IMG/VR virus record: IMGVR_UViG_2802429242_000004
Length of the DNA: 31,564 nucleotides
From: a virus
Taxonomy: Duplodnaviria; Heunggongvirae; Uroviricota; Caudoviricetes
Direction: 5' to 3' (one strand)
The position numbers were made by a program, and so were the translations under genes. A model generated the notes under the pieces. It saw only the letters and a program-made list of their open reading frames with translations, did no database searches and was not told the origin of the DNA. This document shows, piece by piece, positions 3,312 through 30,139 of this stretch (within the stretch, counting starts at the first letter, position 1; the number at the start of each line of letters is the position of its first letter).

Positions 3312-3583
3312 GTATTCGTATCGAAATTGGCGAACGTTATGTCGTTACCAGTGACAGCTTTCAGTTTATTCTCCACGAGAAAAAGAGAGCGGAAAGCGGT
3401 AAAAACGCCGGTCAGGAATGGCTGTCGGTGGTTGGTTATTATCCGAAATTAAGCCAGCTCGTTTCCGGCCTGATGCATCACGATATTCTGACCGGAAGCG
3501 CAAAGTCTTTTGCTGATTTAAACGCGCAGGTTGAGCAACTCAGCAAGCGTTGTTCAGAGGCTTTTGGCTCATATGGCCGTTAA
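3308..3583 (+). CDS. Early protein (P2 orf83 position)
   Basis: 91-aa ORF, start overlaps upstream stop and 3' end overlaps the start of A. Confidence 0.6.
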   Translation: MSIRIEIGERYVVTSDSFQFILHEKKRAESGKNAGQEWLSVVGYYPKLSQLVSGLMHHDILTGSAKSFADLNAQVEQLSKRCSEAFGSYGR

Positions 3584-5846
3584 AGCCTCCGGGCGTTTTG
3601 TCCCTCCGTCAGCATTTGCCGCAGACACCGGTAAGACGTTTACCGGTGCTTATGCATGGAACGCGCCACGCGAGGCTGTCGGGCGCGAAAGACCCCTTAC
3701 ACGTGACGAGATGCGTCAGGTGCAAGGTGTTTTATCCACGATTAACCGCCTGCCTTACTTTTTGCGCTCGCTGTTTACGTCACGCTATGACTACATCCGG
3801 CGCAATAAAAGCCCGGTGCACGGGTTTTATTTCCTCACATCCACTTTTCAGCGTCGTTTATGGCCGCGCATTGAGCGTGTGAATCAGCGCCATGAAATGA
3901 ACACCGACGCGTCGATGCTGTTTCTGGCTGAGCGTGACCACTATGCGCGCCTGCCGGGGATGAATGACAAGGAGCTGAAAAAGTTTGCCGCCCGTATCTC
4001 ATCGCAGCTTTTCATGATGTATGAGGAACTCTGCGATGCATGGGTTGATGCACATGGCGAGAAAGAATCGCTGTTTACGGATGAGGCGCAGGCGCATCTG
4101 TATGGTCATGTTGCTGGCGCTGCACGTGCTTTCAATATTTCCCCGCTCTACTGGAAAAAATACCGTAAAGGACAGATGACCACGAGGCAGGCATATTCTG
4201 CCATTGCCCGCCTGTTTAACGATGAGTGGTGGACTCATCAGCTTAAAGGCCAGCGTATGCGCTGGCATGAGGCGTTACTGATTGCTGTCGGGGAGGTCAA
4301 TAAAGACCGTTCTCCTTATGCCAGTAAACATGCCATTCGTGATGTGCGTGCGCGCCGCCAGGCAAATCTGGAATTTCTTAAATCGTGTGACCTTGAAAAC
4401 AAGGAAACCGGCGAGCGCATCGACCTTATCAGTAAGGTGATGGGCAGTATTTCTAATCCAGAAATTCGCCGGATGGAGCTGATGAACACCATCGCCGGTA
4501 TTGAGCGTTACGCCGCCGCAGAGGGTGATGTGGGGATGTTTATCACGCTGACCGCGCCGTCAAAGTATCACCCGACACGTCAGGTCAGAAAAGGCGAAAG
4601 TAAAACCGTCCAGCTAAATCACGGCTGGAACGATGAGGCATTTAATCCAAAGGATGCGCAGCGTTATCTCTGCCGTATCTGGAGCCTGATGCGCACGGCA
4701 TTCAAGGATAATGATTTACAGGCCTACGGTTTGCGTGTTGTTGAACCACACCACGACGGAACGCCGCACTGGCATATGATGCTTTTTTGTAATCCACGCC
4801 AGCGTAACCAGATTATTGAAATCATGCGTCGCTATGCGCTCAAAGAGGATGGCGACGAAAGAGGAGCCGCGCGAAACCGTTTTCAGGCAAAACATCTTAA
4901 CCGGGGCGGTGCTGCGGGGTATATCGCAAAATACATCTCAAAAAACATCGATGGCTATGCACTGGATGGTCAGCTCGATAATGATACCGGCAGGCCGCTG
5001 AAAGATACTGCTGCGGCTGTTACCGCATGGGCGTCAACGTGGCGAATTCCGCAATTTAAAACGATTGGCCTGCCGACAATGGGGGCTTACCGTGAACTAC
5101 GCAAATTGCCTCGCGGCGTCAGTATTGCTGATGAGTTTGACGAACGCGTCGAGGCTGCTCGCGCTGCCGCAGACAGTGGTGATTTTGCGTTGTATATCAG
5201 CGCGCAGGGTGGGGCAAATGTCCCGCGCGATTGTCAGACTGTCAGGGTTGCCCGTAGCCCGTCGGATGACGTTAACGAGTACGAGGAAGAAGTCGAGAGA
5301 GTGGTCGGCATTTACGCGCCGCATCTCGGCGCGCGTCATATTCATATCACCAGAACGACGGACTGGCGCATTGTGCCGAAAGTTCCGGTCGTTGAGCCTT
5401 TGACTTTAAAAAGCGGCATCGCCGCGCCTCGGAGTCCTGTCAATAACTGTGGAAAGCTCACCAGTGGTGATACTTCGTTACCGGCTCCCACACCTTCTGA
5501 GCACGTCGCAGCAGTGCTTAATCTGGTTGATGACGGTGTTATCGAATGGAATGACCCGGAGGTCGTGAGGGCGCTCAGGGGCGCATTAAAACACGGACGC
5601 ACCGCAAAGATTTCTGCCGTCTGTTGGTTGAATAATTCGAGATTTTTGGACATGCATAGTTCCCTTTCATCAATTAAAGACCCTTATGCCGACTGGGCAA
5701 AGAGGCTAACTGTAATGGCCTCAAATAACGACCTGAGCTCACGCGAGGTGGACAGTTACACTGAAAAAATGGTTGAACAAGCCAGTAAAGATGAGCTTAT
5801 GGTCGTTATAAAATACCTGTTAAATCACATCAGAATGAGTAAATAA
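3573..5846 (+). CDS. A: Rolling-circle replication initiator A (HUH endonuclease)
   Basis: Large ORF; start trimmed to MAVKASGRF at 3573; HUH motif TPHWHMMLF and tyrosine motif GYIAKYISKN. Confidence 0.92.
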   Translation: MAVKASGRFVPPSAFAADTGKTFTGAYAWNAPREAVGRERPLTRDEMRQVQGVLSTINRLPYFLRSLFTSRYDYIRRNKSPVHGFYFLTSTFQRRLWPRIERVNQRHEMNTDASMLFLAERDHYARLPGMNDKELKKFAARISSQLFMMYEELCDAWVDAHGEKESLFTDEAQAHLYGHVAGAARAFNISPLYWKKYRKGQMTTRQAYSAIARLFNDEWWTHQLKGQRMRWHEALLIAVGEVNKDRSPYASKHAIRDVRARRQANLEFLKSCDLENKETGERIDLISKVMGSISNPEIRRMELMNTIAGIERYAAAEGDVGMFITLTAPSKYHPTRQVRKGESKTVQLNHGWNDEAFNPKDAQRYLCRIWSLMRTAFKDNDLQAYGLRVVEPHHDGTPHWHMMLFCNPRQRNQIIEIMRRYALKEDGDERGAARNRFQAKHLNRGGAAGYIAKYISKNIDGYALDGQLDNDTGRPLKDTAAAVTAWASTWRIPQFKTIGLPTMGAYRELRKLPRGVSIADEFDERVEAARAAADSGDFALYISAQGGANVPRDCQTVRVARSPSDDVNEYEEEVERVVGIYAPHLGARHIHITRTTDWRIVPKVPVVEPLTLKSGIAAPRSPVNNCGKLTSGDTSLPAPTPSEHVAAVLNLVDDGVIEWNDPEVVRALRGALKHGRTAKISAVCWLNNSRFLDMHSSLSSIKDPYADWAKRLTVMASNNDLSSREVDSYTEKMVEQASKDELMVVIKYLLNHIRMSK

Positions 5847-5985
5847 AATGATCTATATCAAGATGTTATCTCACATTTATGAAAGTCCGTGGACAACGAT
5901 TTTTCTGCTAATTGTTGTCAGTACGTGCCTCAACAGTGTGATTGGTGCATTGCGCGGCCAGTGACAACTATAAAAATTGATCAGA

Positions 5986-6012
5986 ACCGGCACCATGAAT
6001 GCCGGTTTTTTT
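5986..6012 (+). terminator. Rho-independent terminator downstream of A
   Basis: Stem accggca (5986-5992) / tgccggt (6000-6006) with 7-nt loop, followed by a T7 run. Confidence 0.6.
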
Positions 6013-6157
6013 GTGCTTTTTCTGTGATATCCCCGTTTTTATCTGTGCATGGTTTTGCATGTGCCGGAGTTACATGTTCTGGCTGTGCGTCCGCCAGGAC
6101 TGGCGTGGCTCAAAAGCGGTATTGCAACTGCATTAAAACCGCCCCATGAAGCGGGCG

Positions 6158-6176
6158 GGCGAGGCGGGGAAAGCAC
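6158..6176. other. cos: cos cohesive-end 19-mer (ggcgaggcggggaaagcac)
   Basis: Exact match to the P2/P4 cohesive-end sequence as I recall it; lies between A and Q as expected for a P2-like genome. Confidence 0.55.
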
Positions 6177-6212
6177 CGCGCGTAAGATAAACAGAAGAGC
6201 GAAGGATTATGG

Positions 6213-6241
6213 TTGAGTATTTGTGTTTTTGTACATATGAT
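6213..6241 (+). promoter_or_regulatory. Predicted sigma70 promoter for the cargo operon
   Basis: -35 ttgagt (6213-6218), 17-bp spacer, -10 tatgat (6236-6241); RBS aaaggag before the ATG at 6283. Confidence 0.4.
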
Positions 6242-6282
6242 AAAAAGGTGTTTACGCTTAAAAACACATCAAAGGAGATGAT

Positions 6283-7584
6283 ATGGAAAATATAAAGATT
6301 GATAAGTTTCTCACTATTCAAAAAGTTGATATTCCTCTTAAGAAAGTGAATATATTTATTGGGCCTCAGGCACAGGGGAAAAGTGTCATTGCAAAGCTAA
6401 TAAAATATTTTAAAGATTACCCTATGGATATACTACGAGCTTCAACAGAGGGTAAAACTAAAAGAGATATATTGAAGGAGCAAAAGAATAAGTTTAGTAA
6501 AATTTTCCCTCAGCAGTATTGGGCTGATGATGAGTTTTTTATTGAGTATAGTAATAAGCACTATTGGGTGCGGATTACTAATCGAAAAGATAGCAAAGGG
6601 TCATTGAAAATAACCCTTTCTGAGAATTTAACGAAGACGATTGCTAAACTTCGTTTGATTGTACGAAAGGATTTAGATGAAAATATTGAGAATTCACTTG
6701 CAGAAAGCGTTACGAGAAGACGTAAACGCGGAATTGAACATGAATTGCGAGTATGTCTTTCTCTAGGATTGTTTTCAGAACCAGAAACAAAGCTTGAAAG
6801 TGTTTTTTATATCCCCGCAGGGCGCTCTTTTTTTGCTAACTTGCAAAAAAATGTGTTTTCATTTTTATCCAGTAGTATAGAAATTGACTACTTTTTGACA
6901 GAGTTTGGTTCTCTGTATGAACAAACAAAAAAATTATTTAGCCAAGATTACATGATTAGGATGCTTAGGGGGGCTGTGCCTCAACATGTTAATAAGCTTG
7001 TGGAGGAGTTGATTTGCGGAAAATATATAACAGAAAAGGGTGAGGATTTTATTCGTCATGCTGCTAAAAAGACGAATCTTAACAACTCGAGCTCAGGGCA
7101 GCAAGAAGCGTTACCAATGGCTTTAATGTTATCCTCATGGCCGTATTTACAGTCTATGACTAGTAAGAGTTTTATTATTGAGGAGCCGGAGGCTCATCTG
7201 TTTCCTTCTGCCCAAGCAAAAGTTGTATCTTTAATAGCCTCAGCGTATAACCAAGCAGAAAGCTATTGTAGCTATACAATAACAACACATAGCCCATATA
7301 TTCTAAGTGCCTTCAATAATTTGATTCAAGCAGGTAATGCATTGAAGTGTATTAAGGGCAAGAATAATGCCGATATCGAACGCTTATATAAGCTTGTTCC
7401 AGAGTCTCAAATTATTGATTTTGATGATGTGACAGCTTATATGGTTAATGCTGGGAAAGTGACGGAAATACTGGATTCCGAACTAAATATATTAGATGCG
7501 AATGAAATAGATAGGATTTCCTCTATTTTTTCAGAGACTTTTGATGCATTGATTGATATCGAATATTCGGCTACTGTGAATTAG
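6283..7584 (+). CDS. ABC-type (AAA_21/OLD-like) ATPase without a nuclease domain; candidate defence component
   Basis: 433 aa; Walker A GPQAQGKS (K33), ABC signature-like SSGQQEAL, Walker B FIIEEPE, H-loop TTHS; region is strongly AT-rich compared with the flanking phage genes. Confidence 0.75.
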   Translation: MENIKIDKFLTIQKVDIPLKKVNIFIGPQAQGKSVIAKLIKYFKDYPMDILRASTEGKTKRDILKEQKNKFSKIFPQQYWADDEFFIEYSNKHYWVRITNRKDSKGSLKITLSENLTKTIAKLRLIVRKDLDENIENSLAESVTRRRKRGIEHELRVCLSLGLFSEPETKLESVFYIPAGRSFFANLQKNVFSFLSSSIEIDYFLTEFGSLYEQTKKLFSQDYMIRMLRGAVPQHVNKLVEELICGKYITEKGEDFIRHAAKKTNLNNSSSGQQEALPMALMLSSWPYLQSMTSKSFIIEEPEAHLFPSAQAKVVSLIASAYNQAESYCSYTITTHSPYILSAFNNLIQAGNALKCIKGKNNADIERLYKLVPESQIIDFDDVTAYMVNAGKVTEILDSELNILDANEIDRISSIFSETFDALIDIEYSATVN

Positions 7585-7592
7585 GTGATTGA

Positions 7593-8030
7593 ATGTGTAA
7601 AAATTGCAAAGGAAAAACAAAAAATAAAATCATTGTGCTATCTGATAAAGGAACGTCAACGCAATTGTCAGTCATAAATGATAATGAGTTGGAGGTTGAG
7701 CATAAGTTAATAGATGGTTGCGCTATTGTTGTTGGGGAGCGGTGTGATCATTATTTGAAGATTTATAACAATCAGGATGTTTCACATCTTTTTGTTGAAC
7801 TTAAAGGAAGTGATGTTGAAAAAGCTGTTAAACAGATAGTGACAACTTTAAAGTCAGGTGTGATTAATGTAGGTGCTAAAGAAAAAAAACATGGTGCTAT
7901 TGTTAGCACTAGGAATCCGCTAAACTCAACAGAAACCAATAAGTTAAAGAAGAAAATTCTTTTGAGTGACGGAGTGAATTTGCATTTCTATAAAATGAAG
8001 GCGCAGCAAAAAATAACTTCTTTTACATGA
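7593..8030 (+). CDS. Small protein with PD-(D/E)xK-like motif; candidate nuclease effector
   Basis: 145 aa; 8 bp after the ATPase stop with its own RBS aggtga; N-terminal CxxC, then D41/D52 ... E69-L-K71 (HLFVELKGSD); lysine-rich C-terminus. Confidence 0.5.
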   Translation: MCKNCKGKTKNKIIVLSDKGTSTQLSVINDNELEVEHKLIDGCAIVVGERCDHYLKIYNNQDVSHLFVELKGSDVEKAVKQIVTTLKSGVINVGAKEKKHGAIVSTRNPLNSTETNKLKKKILLSDGVNLHFYKMKAQQKITSFT

Positions 8031-8043
8031 AGTGTTCTCTTGT

Positions 8044-8067
8044 ACAGGCATGCATTTGCATGCCTGT
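8044..8067. terminator. Hairpin between the convergent cargo operon and Q (probable bidirectional terminator)
   Basis: Perfect 10-bp stem acaggcatgc / gcatgcctgt with 4-nt loop, T-rich sequence after it. Confidence 0.5.
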
Positions 8068-8133
8068 CGTGTAATCTTTTACACTATATTTGTGTTGGTT
8101 CTAATCTTGTTATGTGTTTGTTTCGGTGATGGA

Positions 8134-9153
8134 TCATAATGAATAAGTTCGAAAGCGAAATACATCTTCGCCAACCCAACAGTTAATTTCTTTACATCGC
8201 TCTTGGAGGAACGTTAGCTCGTTGCGTACAAAGACTTGTGCTGCTTTTGTTACATCTCCAAATCCTCCTGTGTTGTTGGGCATCATTCCTATCATTTGGG
8301 GAGGCACGCGATGAGCACTCATTAGATCTTCAGCACTTGCTTTTTTGATATTAAAAAAATCGTCCTTCGTTGCCACTTCACTGAGCGGGATAATTTTAAT
8401 GCCGTCGGCTTTCCCCTGCGGGGCATAGAGAAACAGATTTTTAAAGTTATTGCGGCCTTTCGACTTAACCATGTTTTCGCGAAGCATTTCGATATCGTTG
8501 CGATCCTGCACGGCATCGGTGACGTACATGATGTATCCGGCATGTGCGCCATTTTCGTAATACTTGCGGCGGAACAGCGTGGCTGATTCATTCAGCCAGG
8601 CAGAGTTAAGGGCGCTGAGATACTCCGGCAGGCCGTACAGCTCCTGATTAATATCCGGCTCCAGCAGGTGAAACACGGAGCCGGGTGCGAAGGCTGTCGG
8701 CTCGTTGAAGGACGGCACCCACCAGTAAACATCCTCTTCCACACCACGGCGGGTATATTTTGCCGGTGAGGTTTCCAGTCTGATGACCTTACCGGTGGTG
8801 CTGTAGCGCTTTTCCAGAAACGCATTACCGAACACCAGAAAATCCAGCACAAAGCGACTGAAATCCTGCTGGGAAAGCCACGGGTGCGGGATAAACGTTG
8901 AGGCCAGAATATTACGTTTGACGTAAATCGGTGAGCTGTGATGCACGGCAGCACGCAGGCTTTTTGCCAGACCGGTAAAGCTGACCGGTGGCTCATACCA
9001 TCTGCCGTTACTGATGCACTCGACGTAATCCAGAATATCACGGCGGTCGAGTACCGGCACCGGCTCACCAAAGGTGAATGCCTCCATTTTCGGGGCGCTG
9101 GCAGTCATTGTTTTCACCGCTGGCTGCGGTGTTTTCCCTTTTTTCTTACTCAT
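8134..9153 (-). CDS. Q: Portal protein
   Basis: 339-aa ORF, P2 Q position; start overlaps the stop of P by 1 nt. Confidence 0.9.
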   Translation of the reverse strand: MSKKKGKTPQPAVKTMTASAPKMEAFTFGEPVPVLDRRDILDYVECISNGRWYEPPVSFTGLAKSLRAAVHHSSPIYVKRNILASTFIPHPWLSQQDFSRFVLDFLVFGNAFLEKRYSTTGKVIRLETSPAKYTRRGVEEDVYWWVPSFNEPTAFAPGSVFHLLEPDINQELYGLPEYLSALNSAWLNESATLFRRKYYENGAHAGYIMYVTDAVQDRNDIEMLRENMVKSKGRNNFKNLFLYAPQGKADGIKIIPLSEVATKDDFFNIKKASAEDLMSAHRVPPQMIGMMPNNTGGFGDVTKAAQVFVRNELTFLQERCKEINCWVGEDVFRFRTYSL

Positions 9154-10925
9154 CAGTAAAACTCCAGAATGGTGGATGTCAGCGGAGTGCTGATACCGGC
9201 GGTGAGTGGCTCATTTAACAGGGCGTGCATGGTCGCCCAGGCGAGGTCGGCGTGGCTGGCTTCCTCGCTGCGGCTGGCCTCATAGGTGGCGCTGCGTCCG
9301 CTGCTGGTCATGGTCTTGCGGATAGCCATGAACGAGCTGGTGATGTCGGTGGCGCTGACGTCATATTCCAGACAGCCACGGCGGATAACGTCTTTTGCCT
9401 TGAGCACCATTGCAGTTTTCATTTCCGGCGTGTAGCGGATATCGCGCGCGGCGGGATAGAACGAGCGCACGAGCTGGAACACGCCGACACCGAGGCCGGT
9501 GGCATCAATCCCGATGTATTCAACGTTATATTTTTCGGTGAGTTTGCGGATGGATTCCGCCTGGGTGGCAAAGTCCATGCCTTTCCACTGGTGACGCTCA
9601 AGTATTCTGAATTTGCCACCGGCCACCACCGGCGGTGCCAGTACCACGCATCCGGCGCTGTCGCCACGGTGTGACGGGTCGTAACCAATCCATACCGGAC
9701 GTGAGCCGAACGGATTGGTGGCAAACGGCGCATAGTCTTCCCATTCTTCCAGCGTGTCGACCATGCAGCGTTGCAGCTCCTCGAACGGGAACACCGATGC
9801 CTTGTCGTCAACAAATTCACACATGAACAGGTTTTTAAAATCGTCGGCGCTGTTTTCGCGTTTGAGCTGCTCAATGTCGAACAACGTGCAGCCACCTTTC
9901 AGGGCGTCCTCAATGGTGACAATCTGCCGCCACTGGCCGTCCGCACAGAGAAGACCACCGGCAAGGGCGTTATGACTGACGTCGATTTCCACGCGTTCGG
10001 CGGCGCTGGCGCGTCCCCGGTTAAACAGTTCACCCGACCAGAACGGGTAGGCGTCGTGCGCCAGCGTGGACGGGGTGGAGAAATAGGTCGAGCGCAGGTG
10101 ACTCTGTGAGGCCATACCTGATGCCACCTTACGCAGTACCTGAAAATTCGGGATCCAGAAAATCTCGTCGACGTACAGGTCGCCGTTATGGCTCTGCGCG
10201 GTGTTGGAGTTGGTGCCGAGAAAAATCAGTTTTGCGCCGTTATTGCCCAGGACAATCGGGTCACCGGTCAGGTCAACGTCAACCAGCCGGGCAAAGGCGA
10301 TGATGTATTCGCGGAACACATACGCCTGCGTTTTACTGGCCGACAGAAAAATCTGGTTATGGCCGGTTTTCAGGGCGCGCAGCAGCGCCTCGCGGGAAAA
10401 ATAAAACGTCGCGCCAATCTGGCGGGATTTCAGGATATCGCGGATGCGGTGCTCAAGCCCGGCGCGATACCAGTGCAACTGATATTCGAAAGACTGCTCA
10501 AAGAAAATCTGCTCCAGCTTTTCGATGGCCTCGTCACTGAAAAAATTCTTTTTCGGTTTGCGCCGTCCGCCTTTGTTGCGGTTAGCGACGTTCGGATTAA
10601 GGTCTGCCTCGTTGCCGGTCTGACTGTAACGGTTTACCCGTGCCAGTCGTTCAATCTGGCGTCCCAGCAGGTCAATTTCCTTGAAGTCACCGCCGGTTTT
10701 CTGCGGTTTGATGATGAGCTGGGTCAGCCGCGCTTCCAGACTCATTTCGACACGGCTGATGGGGGCAACGCTGTCCCAGCCGTCGCGCTGTTTCCAGCTC
10801 TGCACCGTCGGGCGTTTCATCTGCAACATGGCGGCAATCTGCGGCACGGAAAACCCCTGCCAGTACAGCAGCGCCGCCTGACGACGCGGGTCGTGCAAAA
10901 GAGTGGTGTCTGTGGTGATGGTCAT
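9153..10925 (-). CDS. P: Terminase large (ATPase) subunit
   Basis: 590 aa after trimming the start to MTITTDTTLLHDP (ATG at 10923-10925); P2 P position upstream of Q. Confidence 0.9.
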   Translation of the reverse strand: MTITTDTTLLHDPRRQAALLYWQGFSVPQIAAMLQMKRPTVQSWKQRDGWDSVAPISRVEMSLEARLTQLIIKPQKTGGDFKEIDLLGRQIERLARVNRYSQTGNEADLNPNVANRNKGGRRKPKKNFFSDEAIEKLEQIFFEQSFEYQLHWYRAGLEHRIRDILKSRQIGATFYFSREALLRALKTGHNQIFLSASKTQAYVFREYIIAFARLVDVDLTGDPIVLGNNGAKLIFLGTNSNTAQSHNGDLYVDEIFWIPNFQVLRKVASGMASQSHLRSTYFSTPSTLAHDAYPFWSGELFNRGRASAAERVEIDVSHNALAGGLLCADGQWRQIVTIEDALKGGCTLFDIEQLKRENSADDFKNLFMCEFVDDKASVFPFEELQRCMVDTLEEWEDYAPFATNPFGSRPVWIGYDPSHRGDSAGCVVLAPPVVAGGKFRILERHQWKGMDFATQAESIRKLTEKYNVEYIGIDATGLGVGVFQLVRSFYPAARDIRYTPEMKTAMVLKAKDVIRRGCLEYDVSATDITSSFMAIRKTMTSSGRSATYEASRSEEASHADLAWATMHALLNEPLTAGISTPLTSTILEFY

Positions 10926-11098
10926 GAATACCTCGCCGTGATGAATACACGGCAAGGCTACTGAGTCGCGCCCCGCGATTCGCTAAGGTGCTGTTGTGTC
11001 AGTGATAAGCCATCCGGGACTGATGGCGGAGGATGCGCATCGTCGGGAAACTGATGCCGACATGTGACTCCTCTAATCACTATTCAGGACTCCTGACA
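10926..11098. promoter_or_regulatory. Divergent late promoter region (P2 PP/PO position)
   Basis: Gap between divergent P and O; contains a TGT-N12-CAC element (tgtgactcctctaatcac) resembling Ogr-dependent late promoter dyads. Confidence 0.45.
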
Positions 11099-21080: not shown

Positions 21081-21524
21081 ATGAATAAAGTTAAAAGTGT
21101 TTACAGCCCGTCCGAAAATGCAATCTACAACGCAGCGCTATATGAAAGTTATATCAAGGAGGGGACATGGCCGCAGGATGGTATTGAAATCAGCGATGAG
21201 GATGCTGTCAGATTTAATGGGGGAAATAAGCCAACAGGAAAAATGCTGGGAATGGTTTCAGGGACCCTTGCATGGGTTGATGAGCCGCCGCTTTCACCAG
21301 AACAGAAAATATCAGATGCAGAAAACATGAAAGCCACATTTCGTGCAAAAGCTGACAGTGAAATATCCTGGCGTCAGGATGCTGTTGATGCTGGTATCGC
21401 AACTGATGAAGAAACTTCAACTCTCACCCAATGGAAGAAATACCGTGTGCTGCTGATGCGTGTTGATACATCAACAGCCCCCGATATTGAATGGCCTACA
21501 CCTCCGGCAGTTCAGGCCAGATGA
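21081..21524 (+). CDS. G: Tail fibre assembly chaperone G (for the current H C-terminus)
   Basis: 147 aa; C-terminal motif TSTAPDIEWP typical of tail-fibre assembly proteins. Confidence 0.82.
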   Translation: MNKVKSVYSPSENAIYNAALYESYIKEGTWPQDGIEISDEDAVRFNGGNKPTGKMLGMVSGTLAWVDEPPLSPEQKISDAENMKATFRAKADSEISWRQDAVDAGIATDEETSTLTQWKKYRVLLMRVDTSTAPDIEWPTPPAVQAR

Positions 21525-22098
21525 CATCCGGCGCGGTGCTGGTATCTGTTGCCGTCACCGCGTCAATGTAATCCAGCACGGCGTTAAGGCGGGTGGTTTC
21601 TGCCTGCGTCAGCCTCCGCCCGGCCTGTAATTTCAGCTGAATCAGACTGATGGAAGCCATTGCAGCATCAATCAGTGACTGGCGCTGTGCTTCTGCCGCG
21701 TCTACTGCGGCGCAATGCTGTGCCTCAGTATCGGTCACCCATTTCTCACCATCCCATTTATCGTATGGCGTTAACGGGGCGATAGTGGTTGTATTTTCGG
21801 GGTAATCACCCGGAGTTGTGATTTCTTTGGCGTCTCCCGTTTCGGTGTTATAGACGATTTCTCCGCGATGGTCTGGCACATATTCCCATGAGTTTAAATC
21901 CGCAGAGCGGCAGATGGCATAACCAGCTTTATATGTTCCTGGTGCATCTAAACAGGAACATGCCGGAATACCGACACCAACAGCAAGATATTCAGTTGAT
22001 GTGGAAATATATTCTCGTGTTTCACCATTATAATTATAGACAGTAATATCCCCCGCCTTCGTGGCAATAAGCTCGCTATTTAATACGGCATTATCCAT
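21496..22098 (-). CDS. Alternative tail fibre assembly chaperone (G')
   Basis: 200 aa on the opposite strand inside the invertible segment; same C-terminal motif (TSTAPDVIWPELP); its 3' end overlaps G convergently. Confidence 0.8.
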   Translation of the reverse strand: MDNAVLNSELIATKAGDITVYNYNGETREYISTSTEYLAVGVGIPACSCLDAPGTYKAGYAICRSADLNSWEYVPDHRGEIVYNTETGDAKEITTPGDYPENTTTIAPLTPYDKWDGEKWVTDTEAQHCAAVDAAEAQRQSLIDAAMASISLIQLKLQAGRRLTQAETTRLNAVLDYIDAVTATDTSTAPDVIWPELPEV

Positions 22099-22606
22099 TA
22101 TGCAGCCCTCACGATGTAATTAAATGAAAGGTTACGAGGGCGCATTGATATCCATGCCCCGGTAAAATTATCCTCCGCTGTCCTTTGAGTACCCGTTATG
22201 GAGTTATCTGCTGATGCAGGAACATAATCGCTATTATTTCCTGCTTTAGGATTAGCTGGGTTTCCAACAGTTATAACAGAATCAGCAGTAGCAAAAGCGA
22301 TACCTACTTTGACATTAGTATTCAGATCGTAACCGTAATAATCCTGCAAAGCTGTACGAATAAATGTTGCAGCCTGACCACTTAGCAATGAACGCCCCGT
22401 ATCAATCCCTCTAGAATCATCCCAGCCACGAATAAACTCACCACGTAAATCAGGCAATTTATTTGTCGGGTAAGCCTTTGCCAGTTCCGGGTATTCTTCA
22501 GCAGAAAAAGCTGCTCCGTTGCATTTCAGCCAGCCTGTTGGAGGTGTCTCTGAAGGCCACGGAACAGGTGCACCAACAGGTAATGCTGAACCTTCTCCCA
22601 AACCAA
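22098..22606 (-). CDS. Alternative (silent) tail fibre C-terminal segment H'
   Basis: Minus-strand reading frame continuous from the right crossover site (encodes ..LGLGEGSALPVGAPVPWP..); no own promoter or N-terminus, so expressed only after inversion. Confidence 0.75.
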
Positions 22607-22618
22607 CGTTTATGAAAA
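22593..22618. repeat. Right invertase crossover site (hix/gix-like)
   Basis: ttctcccaaacc-aa-cgtttatgaaaa; half-site TTCTCCCAAACC resembles the Gin/Hin half-site pattern (recalled), central AA. Confidence 0.65.
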
Positions 22619-22673
22619 TGCAGAGATAATGGCTAACTGGCATCATCCCCGGTTTTTATTCAGGGGATTGATC

Positions 22674-23267
22674 ATGCTTATTGGCTATATACGCGTGTCA
22701 ACAAATGACCAGAACACGGAATTGCAGCGTAACGCGCTGGAGTGCGCAGGATGCGAGCGGATTTTTGAGGATAAAATCAGTGGCACGAAGTCCGACCGAC
22801 CGGGACTGAAAAAACTGCTCAGAACATTATCAGCAGGTGACACTCTGGTAGTCTGGAAGCTGGACCGGCTGGGGCGTAGTATGCGGCATCTGGTCATTCT
22901 GGTTGAGGAGCTGCGCGAACGCGGCGTTAATTTTCGCAGCCTGACAGATGCTATTGATACCAGCACGCCGATGGGGCGTTTTTTCTTTCATGTGATGGGT
23001 GCCCTGGCTGAAATGGAGCGAGAACTCATTGTCGAGCGGACACGCGCCGGACTGGAAGCGGCCAGAGCCAAAGGGCGTATTGGTGGCAGACGTCCGAAGC
23101 TCACCGCGAGTGAGTGGGAACAGGCAGGACGGTTGCTGGCTGCGGGTGAATCACGTCAACGCGTGGCGCTGATTTTTGATATTGGCCTGTCCACGCTCTA
23201 TAAAAAATTCCCCTCATCAGCGGCAAAGAATAAATTGTGTCATCCCTTAGCCAACCGGGACAAATAG
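22674..23267 (+). CDS. Site-specific DNA invertase, serine recombinase (Hin/Gin/Cin/Pin family)
   Basis: N-terminus MLIGYIRVSTNDQ with the catalytic serine; resolvase/invertase catalytic domain plus C-terminal HTH; immediately next to the right crossover site. Start trimmed from the track's 22629. Confidence 0.9.
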   Translation: MLIGYIRVSTNDQNTELQRNALECAGCERIFEDKISGTKSDRPGLKKLLRTLSAGDTLVVWKLDRLGRSMRHLVILVEELRERGVNFRSLTDAIDTSTPMGRFFFHVMGALAEMERELIVERTRAGLEAARAKGRIGGRRPKLTASEWEQAGRLLAAGESRQRVALIFDIGLSTLYKKFPSSAAKNKLCHPLANRDK

Positions 23268-29629: not shown

Positions 29630-29710
29630 CGTGTTTTATTTATCTGTTTGTTTTATAAGGATAAATTAACTAAAATGGCACCATCAACAAAACCGGAAGA
29701 GGTGCTCGCG

Positions 29711-29929
29711 ATGTTTCATTGTCCTTTATGCCAGCATGCCGCACATGCGCGTACAAGCCGCTATATCACTGACACGACAAAAGAGCGTTATCACCAGTGT
29801 CAGAACGTGAATTGCAGCGCCACGTTCATCACTTATGAGTCTGTACAGCGATACATTGTGAAGCCGGGAGAAGTCCACGCCGTGAGGCCGCACCCGTTGC
29901 CGTCAGGGCAGCAAATTATGTGGATGTAA
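29711..29929 (+). CDS. ogr: Ogr late-gene transcription activator (C4 zinc finger)
   Basis: 72 aa after trimming to MFHCPLCQHAAHAR; CxxC-x22-CxxC zinc finger; matches P2 Ogr as recalled. Confidence 0.9.
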   Translation: MFHCPLCQHAAHARTSRYITDTTKERYHQCQNVNCSATFITYESVQRYIVKPGEVHAVRPHPLPSGQQIMWM

Positions 29930-30031: not shown

Positions 30032-30058
30032 AAAAAATAAGCCCGTGTAAGGGAGATT
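30032..30058. other. attR: attR core (P2-type 27-bp core aaaaaataagcccgtgtaagggagatt)
   Basis: Matches the P2 attP/attB core as I recall it; lies at the phage/host junction and coincides with the cyaR terminator. Confidence 0.7.
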
Positions 30059-30118
30059 ACACAGGCTAAGGAGGTGGTTCCTGGTACAGCTAGCATTTTA
30101 TGGGTTATGTTTTTCAGC
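30032..30118 (-). ncRNA. cyaR: CyaR (RyeE) Hfq-dependent sRNA
   Basis: Minus strand reads gctgaaaaacataacccataaaatgctagctgtaccaggaaccacctccttagcctgtgtaatctcccttacacgggcttatttttt (87 nt), matching CyaR as recalled, including the anti-SD-like CCACCUCCUUA and a terminator hairpin plus U-run. Confidence 0.8.
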
Positions 30119-30139
30119 GAAACAGATAATAACCTTAAT

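Follow-up and report, generated by a model that had tools for sequence, protein, structure and literature searches.

The interval between the replication gene and the portal gene Q of P2-like phages, which adjoins the cohesive-end site cos, has been described as a hotspot for accessory genes, anti-phage genes among them (Rousset et al., 2022, PMC9122126), and the same gpA-gpQ hotspot is also described in two further studies (Vassallo et al., 2022, PMC9519451; Moura de Sousa et al., 2026, PMC13586616). Here we analyse the cargo of this interval in a 31,564-nucleotide stretch of Caudoviricetes DNA (IMG/VR record IMGVR_UViG_2802429242_000004; hereafter the window), which holds a complete P2-type prophage, int through ogr. 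The cargo comprises two adjacent genes: gene A, which encodes a predicted ABC-type ATPase, and gene B, which encodes a probable small nuclease (the phage's own replication gene is referred to below by its product, gpA). We favour, with a probability of about 0.6, the reading that the pair is an anti-phage defence cassette in which the ATPase would control the nuclease.

Several described systems provide points of comparison for such a pair. In Septu, PARIS and OLD/Gabija, ABC ATPases regulate an attached or partner nuclease. The candidate family PDC-M29 is one of 145 candidates drawn from genes that lie within BREX, DISARM or type I restriction-modification (RM) loci (Payne et al., 2024, preprint).

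The location of the cargo is clear. The gpA gene (3531-5846) lies on one side and Q (8134-9153, - strand, stop at 8134) on the other, followed by the terminase gene P (9153-10955, - strand), and the cargo abuts the cos core (6127-6182), which consists of the 19-nucleotide cohesive end GGCGAGGCGGGGAAAGCAC at 6158-6176 (aligned with both P2 cos ends and with strain E24377A), about 30 bp on the gpA side and CGCGCG on the Q side. Other P2-like phages, with about 97% identity in the gpA, Q and P genes, hold unrelated cargo here, including a retron, Fic, cdtABC, MORC with Dcm, and DUF4238. Moreover, the exact protein pair (WP_023486639 and WP_040030509) is included in Table S5A of Rousset et al., and Table S5B enters system 81, 'AAA_15/AAA_21', with 45 occurrences (Rousset et al., 2022, PMC9122126). 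Placement between gpA and Q beside cos, variable content on near-identical flanks and the catalogue entry thus make it close to certain that this stretch is cargo of the P2 gpA-gpQ/cos hotspot.

The original prediction described about 2 kb of AT-rich DNA with A/T-ending codons between GC-rich phage genes and read this as recent horizontal acquisition. The GC profile and codon usage agree with the description: GC content is 0.33-0.40 over 6001-8000 against roughly 0.55-0.58 in the phage structural genes, and GC at third codon positions (GC3) is 0.31 in the 433-residue open reading frame (ORF) of gene A and 0.29 in the 145-residue ORF of gene B, compared with 0.71 in P and 0.62 in the first 271 codons of Q. 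Over the whole of 6183-8340 the GC content is 0.355, against 0.55 in the remaining prophage, and the lowest other non-overlapping 2158-bp window reaches 0.443. Horizontal exchange also stands, as unrelated cargo sits on flanks that are nearly the same, but low GC says little about when it happened. The cassette is more AT-rich than its flanks in 16 of 16 host contexts, with host GC from 0.27 to 0.69, and low GC is thus a trait of the cassette gene family and no proof of recent arrival. The same caution applies to such cargo elsewhere, whose low GC is a property of the gene family rather than an acquisition clock. Recent exchange is better supported by the rarity of the cassette and by its 99-100% identity on different backbones.

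Alignment to P2 places the breakpoints of the exchanged DNA at about 6182/6183 and about 8340. On the left, homology common to more than 2100 E. coli genomes ends at 6182, which corresponds to the cos 19-mer plus CGCGCG (cos + 6 nucleotides). On the right, near-identity to P2 DNA resumes only at about 8340, within Q, so the right edge first drawn at the Q stop (8133) came too early. Residues 1-274 of gpQ are identical to P2 at 272 of 274 positions; residues 275-339 are about half identical, and the terminal DTDND of P2 gpQ is absent from the window's protein. The replaced 3' end of Q (8134-8340, - strand) is an AT-rich segment of 207 bp that covers the last ~68 codons (65 residues, 275-339) up to the junction at about 8340 and has a GC3 of 0.32. 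At 99% identity or more, this segment occurs in exactly 10 of 5426 complete E. coli genomes, the same 10 that carry the cargo, and the remaining P2-type portals are at most ~80% identical across the region. Because the Q tail has the codon bias of the cargo and is found in the same 10 genomes, the exchanged module reaches past the Q stop into Q. Window positions 6183-8340 are thus a swappable module bounded by the conserved cos core on the left and by a recombination junction inside the portal gene on the right, and a junction at this place gives the portal a chimeric C-terminus.

The side of cos on which the cargo sits varies among P2-like phages. In P2, STYP1 and PhiR44_1 the cargo lies entirely on the gpA side and the Q tail is of the P2 type in all three, and a cdt-carrying P2-like phage likewise has its cargo on the gpA side of cos. 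The original prediction was right that the window's cargo, unlike that of P2, is on the Q side, but the arrangement is not unique: pro147, the one further phage examined that has cargo on the Q side, shows it too, with the same cos junction, the last ~22 residues of Q replaced and a protein that ends at residue 339 like the window's. The pro147 cargo (comparison locus L015, 2838-6827) flanks cos in both directions, with a reverse transcriptase on the gpA side and the retron Ec48 reverse transcriptase and effector on the Q side.

Direct or inverted repeats at the flanks, the signature of transposition or site-specific insertion, were looked for, and only short chance matches came up. With no flanking repeats to suggest transposition, recombination between the cos core and the portal gene is the simplest route, and we infer that the module was exchanged in this way. 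A donor for the Q tail was sought among phages and not identified, the best matches, at about 70% protein identity, being P2-like phages of Yersinia enterocolitica and Erwinia phage ENT90. An Rfam scan found no structured RNA, such as a retron non-coding RNA, in the island, and a transfer RNA search found none. In a viral contig that is not P2-like (L024), a fragment 38% identical to gpQ residues 261-313 (2054-2212) lies about 2 kb upstream of a divergent pair of genes A and B (48% identity); this portal-like fragment may be a relic of a former portal-linked context or may reflect chance.

Gene A (6283-7584, + strand; 433 residues) is, judged by its motifs, an ABC ATPase of the AAA_15 or OLD-PtuA-AriA type. 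It matches Pfam AAA_15 at 8e-21, above the family cut-off, and also AAA_21. Across 32 sequences, down to 39% identity, the Walker A motif (G27-x-Q-x-x-G-K33-S34), the ABC signature (S270-S-G-Q-Q-E275), the Walker B/D-loop segment IIEEPE at 298-303 (E300, E303) and the H-loop (T-H336-S) are invariant. The AlphaFold2 model (predicted local distance difference test score, pLDDT, 85; predicted template-modelling score, pTM, 0.88) comprises the ATPase and a helical tail, after which the protein ends. Its nearest solved folds are PtuA, from Septu and retron-PtuAB complexes, followed by Rad50 and structural maintenance of chromosomes (SMC) heads, all at 10-15% identity; the Foldseek comparison with PtuA gives an E-value of about 4e-9 and a TM score of 0.4-0.5. 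When both proteins of the pair were searched against PDB sequences, the sole match was a weak one between gene A and the OLD-family entry 6p74 (E 0.0057).

The Rad50 and SMC resemblance raises the alternative that the pair is an ATPase-nuclease of the Rad50/Mre11 or SbcCD kind that serves the phage's own recombination, repair or end processing, and a weak RecF/SMC_N signal in both Pfam and NCBIfam points the same way. However, gene A has no coiled-coil insertion of the type found in Rad50 and SMC proteins. The pair is also absent from all 130 P2-like genomes of a phage collection and present in just 0.2% of E. coli genomes, which argues that the phage can do without it. Its position is an accessory hotspot, and it occurs elsewhere as stand-alone chromosomal insertions, and we consider a role in phage DNA metabolism very unlikely.

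Gene B (7593-8030, + strand; 145 residues) starts 8 nucleotides after gene A and probably encodes a minimal PD-(D/E)xK nuclease. Profile searches recovered 2357 clusters (at 50% identity) of proteins of 135-150 residues, a family for which Pfam has no model, and 39 diverse members that are only about 30% identical overall share invariant N29, D41, C51, D52, E69, L70, K71, Q81 and P109. In the structural model (pLDDT 87.7), the strand at 53-59 is preceded by D52, the one at 62-70 terminates in E69-L-K71, and the helix at 75-88 contains Q81; this placement of D52, E69-x-K71 and Q81 is that of PD-(D/E)xK enzymes. The best Foldseek matches are BamHI, Mus81, FokI, PaqCI and Cap4, and the nuclease-family fold matches agree between two methods. 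Scattered weak Pfam matches of individual relatives fall mostly in PD-(D/E)xK families. We therefore regard gene B as a probable nuclease on the combined evidence of its invariant motif, its predicted fold and the Pfam matches of its relatives.

It is also conceivable that gene B, with a degenerate version of the restriction-endonuclease fold, is inactive and works as an adaptor or sensor, the effector being the ATPase alone or a host factor. The fold scores are only moderate, with generic alpha/beta folds reaching similar values, and no Pfam family matches the window's gene B protein, as this alternative would have it. The invariance of D52, E69, K71 and Q81 among members so divergent, which is unusual for inactivated enzyme folds, speaks for an active nuclease instead and leaves the inactive version unlikely.

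The two genes form a conserved unit. A gene of the gene B family directly follows a gene of the gene A family in several settings: a Pseudomonas prophage, beside an S24 repressor; the Serratia chromosome, as a stand-alone insertion; a chromosomal site beside SymE that Enterobacter and Kosakonia share; an enterobacterial contig from a metagenome, next to a remnant of gpS; and Nostocales (cyanobacteria). The pair was also adjacent in 31 of the 32 viral contigs that could be evaluated; these contigs were scanned with the gene A-family alignment, as the gene B family has no sufficiently conserved peptide stretch. In Nostocales (L006, 7846-8682), the pair is followed on the same strand by a 134-residue ORF and a 141-residue HNH-domain protein, which may be further components or part of a neighbouring system.

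Comparison with PADLOC models connects this unit to PDC-M29. Scored against PADLOC's hidden Markov model library, gene A has PDC-M29A as its best match (2e-31), as do its relatives in 32 of 32 cases with a best value of 2e-35. Gene B has a weak match to PDC-M29B (2.8e-4, 19 bits), and all 39 of its 39 relatives match this model, at best at 1.3e-12. By these scores the pair belongs to, or is close to, the candidate family PDC-M29.

The surroundings of some cassette copies bear on a further alternative, namely that the pair is a selfish addiction module resembling a toxin-antitoxin (TA) system, or a general stress toxin, that stabilises the prophage, with the nuclease as toxin and the ATPase as its controller. 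The Enterobacter/Kosakonia cassette adjoins SymE and HicB toxin-antitoxin genes, and a close homologue carries, in one source, the name 'putative AbiEii toxin, Type IV TA system'. This name is taken from the Pfam AAA_21 description and describes a family rather than a tested function. The pair also lacks an accompanying small gene for an antitoxin-like DNA-binding protein, and both of its components best match a candidate found embedded in BREX, DISARM and RM loci. The line between abortive-infection defence and TA systems is in any case blurred. Taken together, we judge an addiction role quite unlikely.

The Enterobacter and Kosakonia copies (L008-L012; Enterobacter hormaechei and Kosakonia sacchari) lie between a GH31/MFS_2 sugar-utilisation pair and the SymE toxin gene, with HicB, type VI secretion system Hcp-Tlde1 or an insertion sequence (IS) element in the vicinity. 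The recurrence of this site suggests a chromosomal hotspot for the same cassette.

Within E. coli the cassette is rare. It occurs in 10 of 5426 complete genomes, at 99-100% identity and on at least two backbones, even though the left flank is present in more than 2100. Deposited phage genomes yielded no close match to it and only two distant metagenomic contigs. In E24377A (L002, 6012-9928) the cassette is intact and 99.1% identical to the window's but sits in a decayed prophage, whose portal gene is a truncated fusion to tail genes and whose tape-measure gene is split by an IS21-family element.

The gpA side of cos differs among carriers of the cassette. The original prediction was correct that only about 310 bp separate the gpA gene from cos (311 bp from the gpA stop at 5846), but this distance is not the layout of the element: relative to strain 2452 (L001), the gap reflects a private 1.2-kb deletion that also took the last ~75 codons of gpA, and all eight genomes with identical cargo retain a GNAT gene and a hypothetical gene on this side together with an intact gpA. 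The window's gpA continues beyond '...ALRGALKHG' as an unrelated tail of 82 residues (5598-5846), and none of the 5426 complete E. coli genomes shares the junction at 5598/5599. With the native C-terminus of gpA lost, the prophage may be replication-defective.

This deletion, along with the truncated portal and IS insertion around the E24377A copy, could be taken to mean that the cassette is inert baggage of a decaying prophage with no current function. Against this, both ORFs are intact and every catalytic residue is present, the sequence is nearly invariant in its 10 carriers despite their different backbones, and the cassette family is under clear purifying selection across phyla. Inert baggage is thus a highly improbable account, and we return to the reading of the pair as a functional defence cassette.

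To act from a prophage, such a cassette would have to be expressed in lysogens, and its layout offers candidate signals for this. Downstream of the gpA gene, a terminator-like hairpin with a 10-pair stem followed by the T-run TTTTTTTGTGC (5983-6009, + strand) would halt read-through from the early operon before cos and the cargo. Given so strong a terminator after the replication gene, the cargo probably needs a promoter of its own in the 100 bp from cos to the ATG of gene A. The lone candidate on the + strand in this interval is a sigma-70-type TTGAGT-17-TATGAT (6213-6241; 9 of 12 positions match), for which a promoter role is plausible from its position only. A Shine-Dalgarno sequence, AGGAG (6273-6277, + strand), precedes the ATPase ATG by 5 nucleotides.

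At the 3' end, between the convergent gene B and Q, lie two hairpins (8044-8084). The first, at 8044-8067, is a perfect 10-bp hairpin, ACAGGCATGC-ATTT-GCATGCCTGT, with stem arms at 8044-8053 and 8058-8067; the second is a 6-bp hairpin at 8069-8084, which on the + strand precedes a moderately U-rich stretch. Folding the 70-nucleotide context of the perfect hairpin gives -23.5 kcal/mol, with z-scores of -4.6 (+ strand) and -5.7 (- strand). A cassette 79% identical to the window's, with no portal gene nearby (L013/L014), shares the GGCATGC...GCATGCC core, the base of its stem differing by compensatory changes, and the copies in Serratia and Enterobacter likewise close with their own hairpins. The two hairpins at 8044-8084 together form a probable non-canonical terminator. 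The original prediction of a perfect hairpin thus holds, but its view that the hairpin is a terminator shared with Q is not supported, as the structure is conserved in a cassette without a portal gene and has no U-tract. Overall, with a terminator upstream, a Shine-Dalgarno sequence, genes 8 nucleotides apart and a 3' hairpin of its own, the cassette looks self-contained.

By analogy with PtuA/PtuB of Septu, AriA/AriB of PARIS and OLD/Gabija, the following mechanism can be envisaged for the defence cassette. The cassette would be expressed from the lysogen; the ATPase would assemble into an oligomer that binds the nuclease or licenses it; and, on a signal from an infecting phage, the nuclease would be freed or switched on, cut nucleic acid and so abort the growth of the competing phage.

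Several points weigh against this account. The proposed promoter is no better than chance: although its hexamers are present as originally predicted, the region contains 7 promoter-grade matches compared with 7.9 ± 2.4 in shuffled sequences, and the upstream regions of divergent cassettes do not align, so the site is not conserved. The 3' hairpin lacks a T-tract (U-tract in the transcript) on either strand and received no call in a terminator scan, which leaves a shared bidirectional terminator unproven. System 81 is not among the systems that Rousset et al. cloned and tested (PMC9122126), the PDCs are described as untested (Payne et al., 2024, preprint), and our literature search turned up no paper testing the cassette or PDC-M29. 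Cargo of the hotspot also includes genes without a defence role, partition systems and the cdt toxin being examples (Rousset et al., 2022, PMC9122126), so location alone is no proof of defence.

Other parts of the window touch the cargo less directly. The integrase gene occupies 1-1014 and the repressor C gene 1130-1429, genes for head, lysis and tail are present, and ogr is at 29648-29929. Just past the end of ogr and outside the prophage, a full-length CyaR/RyeE small RNA gene (30035-30120, - strand; 100.7 bits), the sole Rfam match in the window, is followed by a host peptidase U32 gene; this region is probably at, or adjoins, the prophage attachment site. At the position of the P2 Z/fun locus (21081-23267), a tail-fibre assembly gene is found instead. 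With it are an alternative assembly gene in inverted orientation, a fragment with a collar domain and a serine invertase (Resolvase and HTH_7), and GC drops to 0.42-0.45. This segment looks like an invertible host-range region.

The type of locus is well described and the cassette is already catalogued, so the value of these observations is incremental. They nominate a small (1.85 kb), widespread ATPase and nuclease pair as an anti-phage candidate with named catalytic residues. They also indicate that some hotspot swaps in P2-like phages are bounded by the cos core and the portal interior and carry a diverged portal C-terminus, which bears on how cargo is exchanged rapidly. A broader proposition joins the two: that the pair represents a large immune class, an ABC ATPase with a PD-(D/E)xK nuclease of ~140 residues and its own trigger and mechanism, and that Q-side cargo swaps through recombination between the cos core and the portal 3' end. 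We hold this combination only tentatively, at somewhat less than even odds. If it is true, each Q-side swap would create a chimeric portal C-terminus, giving a concrete mechanism for a hotspot turnover that has been called 'still to be elucidated' and possibly a constraint that ties defence cargo to packaging proteins.

A comparison with known systems places the locus among several relatives. Its closest counterpart in layout is the P2 hotspot itself, the old/tin locus (Odegrip, 2006; Rousset et al., 2022; Vassallo et al., 2022; Moura de Sousa et al., 2026), with which it shares the position between gpA and Q abutting cos and the combination of conserved flanks with unrelated AT-rich cargo, and in whose catalogue this exact pair is system 81. 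It differs in the placement of the cargo across cos from that of P2, STYP1, PhiR44_1 and the cdt phage, and in a swapped segment that takes in the end of Q, a feature that the consulted portions of the hotspot papers do not mention. PDC-M29 shares the organisation as two adjacent genes and gives both components their best-matching models. However, the window's scores are moderate and the gene A match is partial, which suggests a divergent branch rather than a core member, and the copies that define PDC-M29 come from BREX, DISARM and type I RM loci rather than prophages.

PARIS, Septu, Gabija/OLD, Menshen and PD-T4-4 were each considered and rejected because their defining partner domains are absent. 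Menshen (NsnABC) consists of three genes, including NsnA (ParB-DUF262) and NsnC (inPIN and nuclease) (PMC12065111), whereas the window has a two-gene operon without NsnA or NsnC in which only the ATPase resembles NsnB (5e-16). Similarly, gene A matches PD-T4-4_A at 1e-16, but gene B has no match to PD-T4-4_B. The P2 Old protein and GajA of Gabija resemble the cassette as ATPase-controlled nucleases; Old resides at the same hotspot in P2, and an OLD-family protein is the one PDB entry related at the sequence level. In these proteins the nuclease is a TOPRIM domain, whereas the window's putative nuclease is a separate polypeptide of another superfamily; the 433-residue ATPase has no TOPRIM domain, and neither a TOPRIM nor a helicase (GajB) gene accompanies it.

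PARIS is likewise a prophage- or satellite-borne, cos-adjacent system of two genes with an AAA_15 ATPase and a nuclease, and gene A matches PADLOC's model of AriA, which has a length of 373 and is probably Pfam's AAA_15 profile, at 1.7e-25. Gene B, however, has no DUF4435 match in Pfam, no AriB match in PADLOC and no TOPRIM domain, its predicted fold is a different one, and gene A is about 100 residues shorter than the 53-55 kDa AriA. Septu and the type I-A retron PtuAB systems, finally, share the two-gene arrangement of ATPase and nuclease, and PtuA is the closest solved fold to gene A, although at low sequence identity. Their nuclease PtuB is of the HNH type, whereas gene B has no HNH match in Pfam or PADLOC and differs in motif and fold as a PD-(D/E)xK-like protein, and the window contains no retron.

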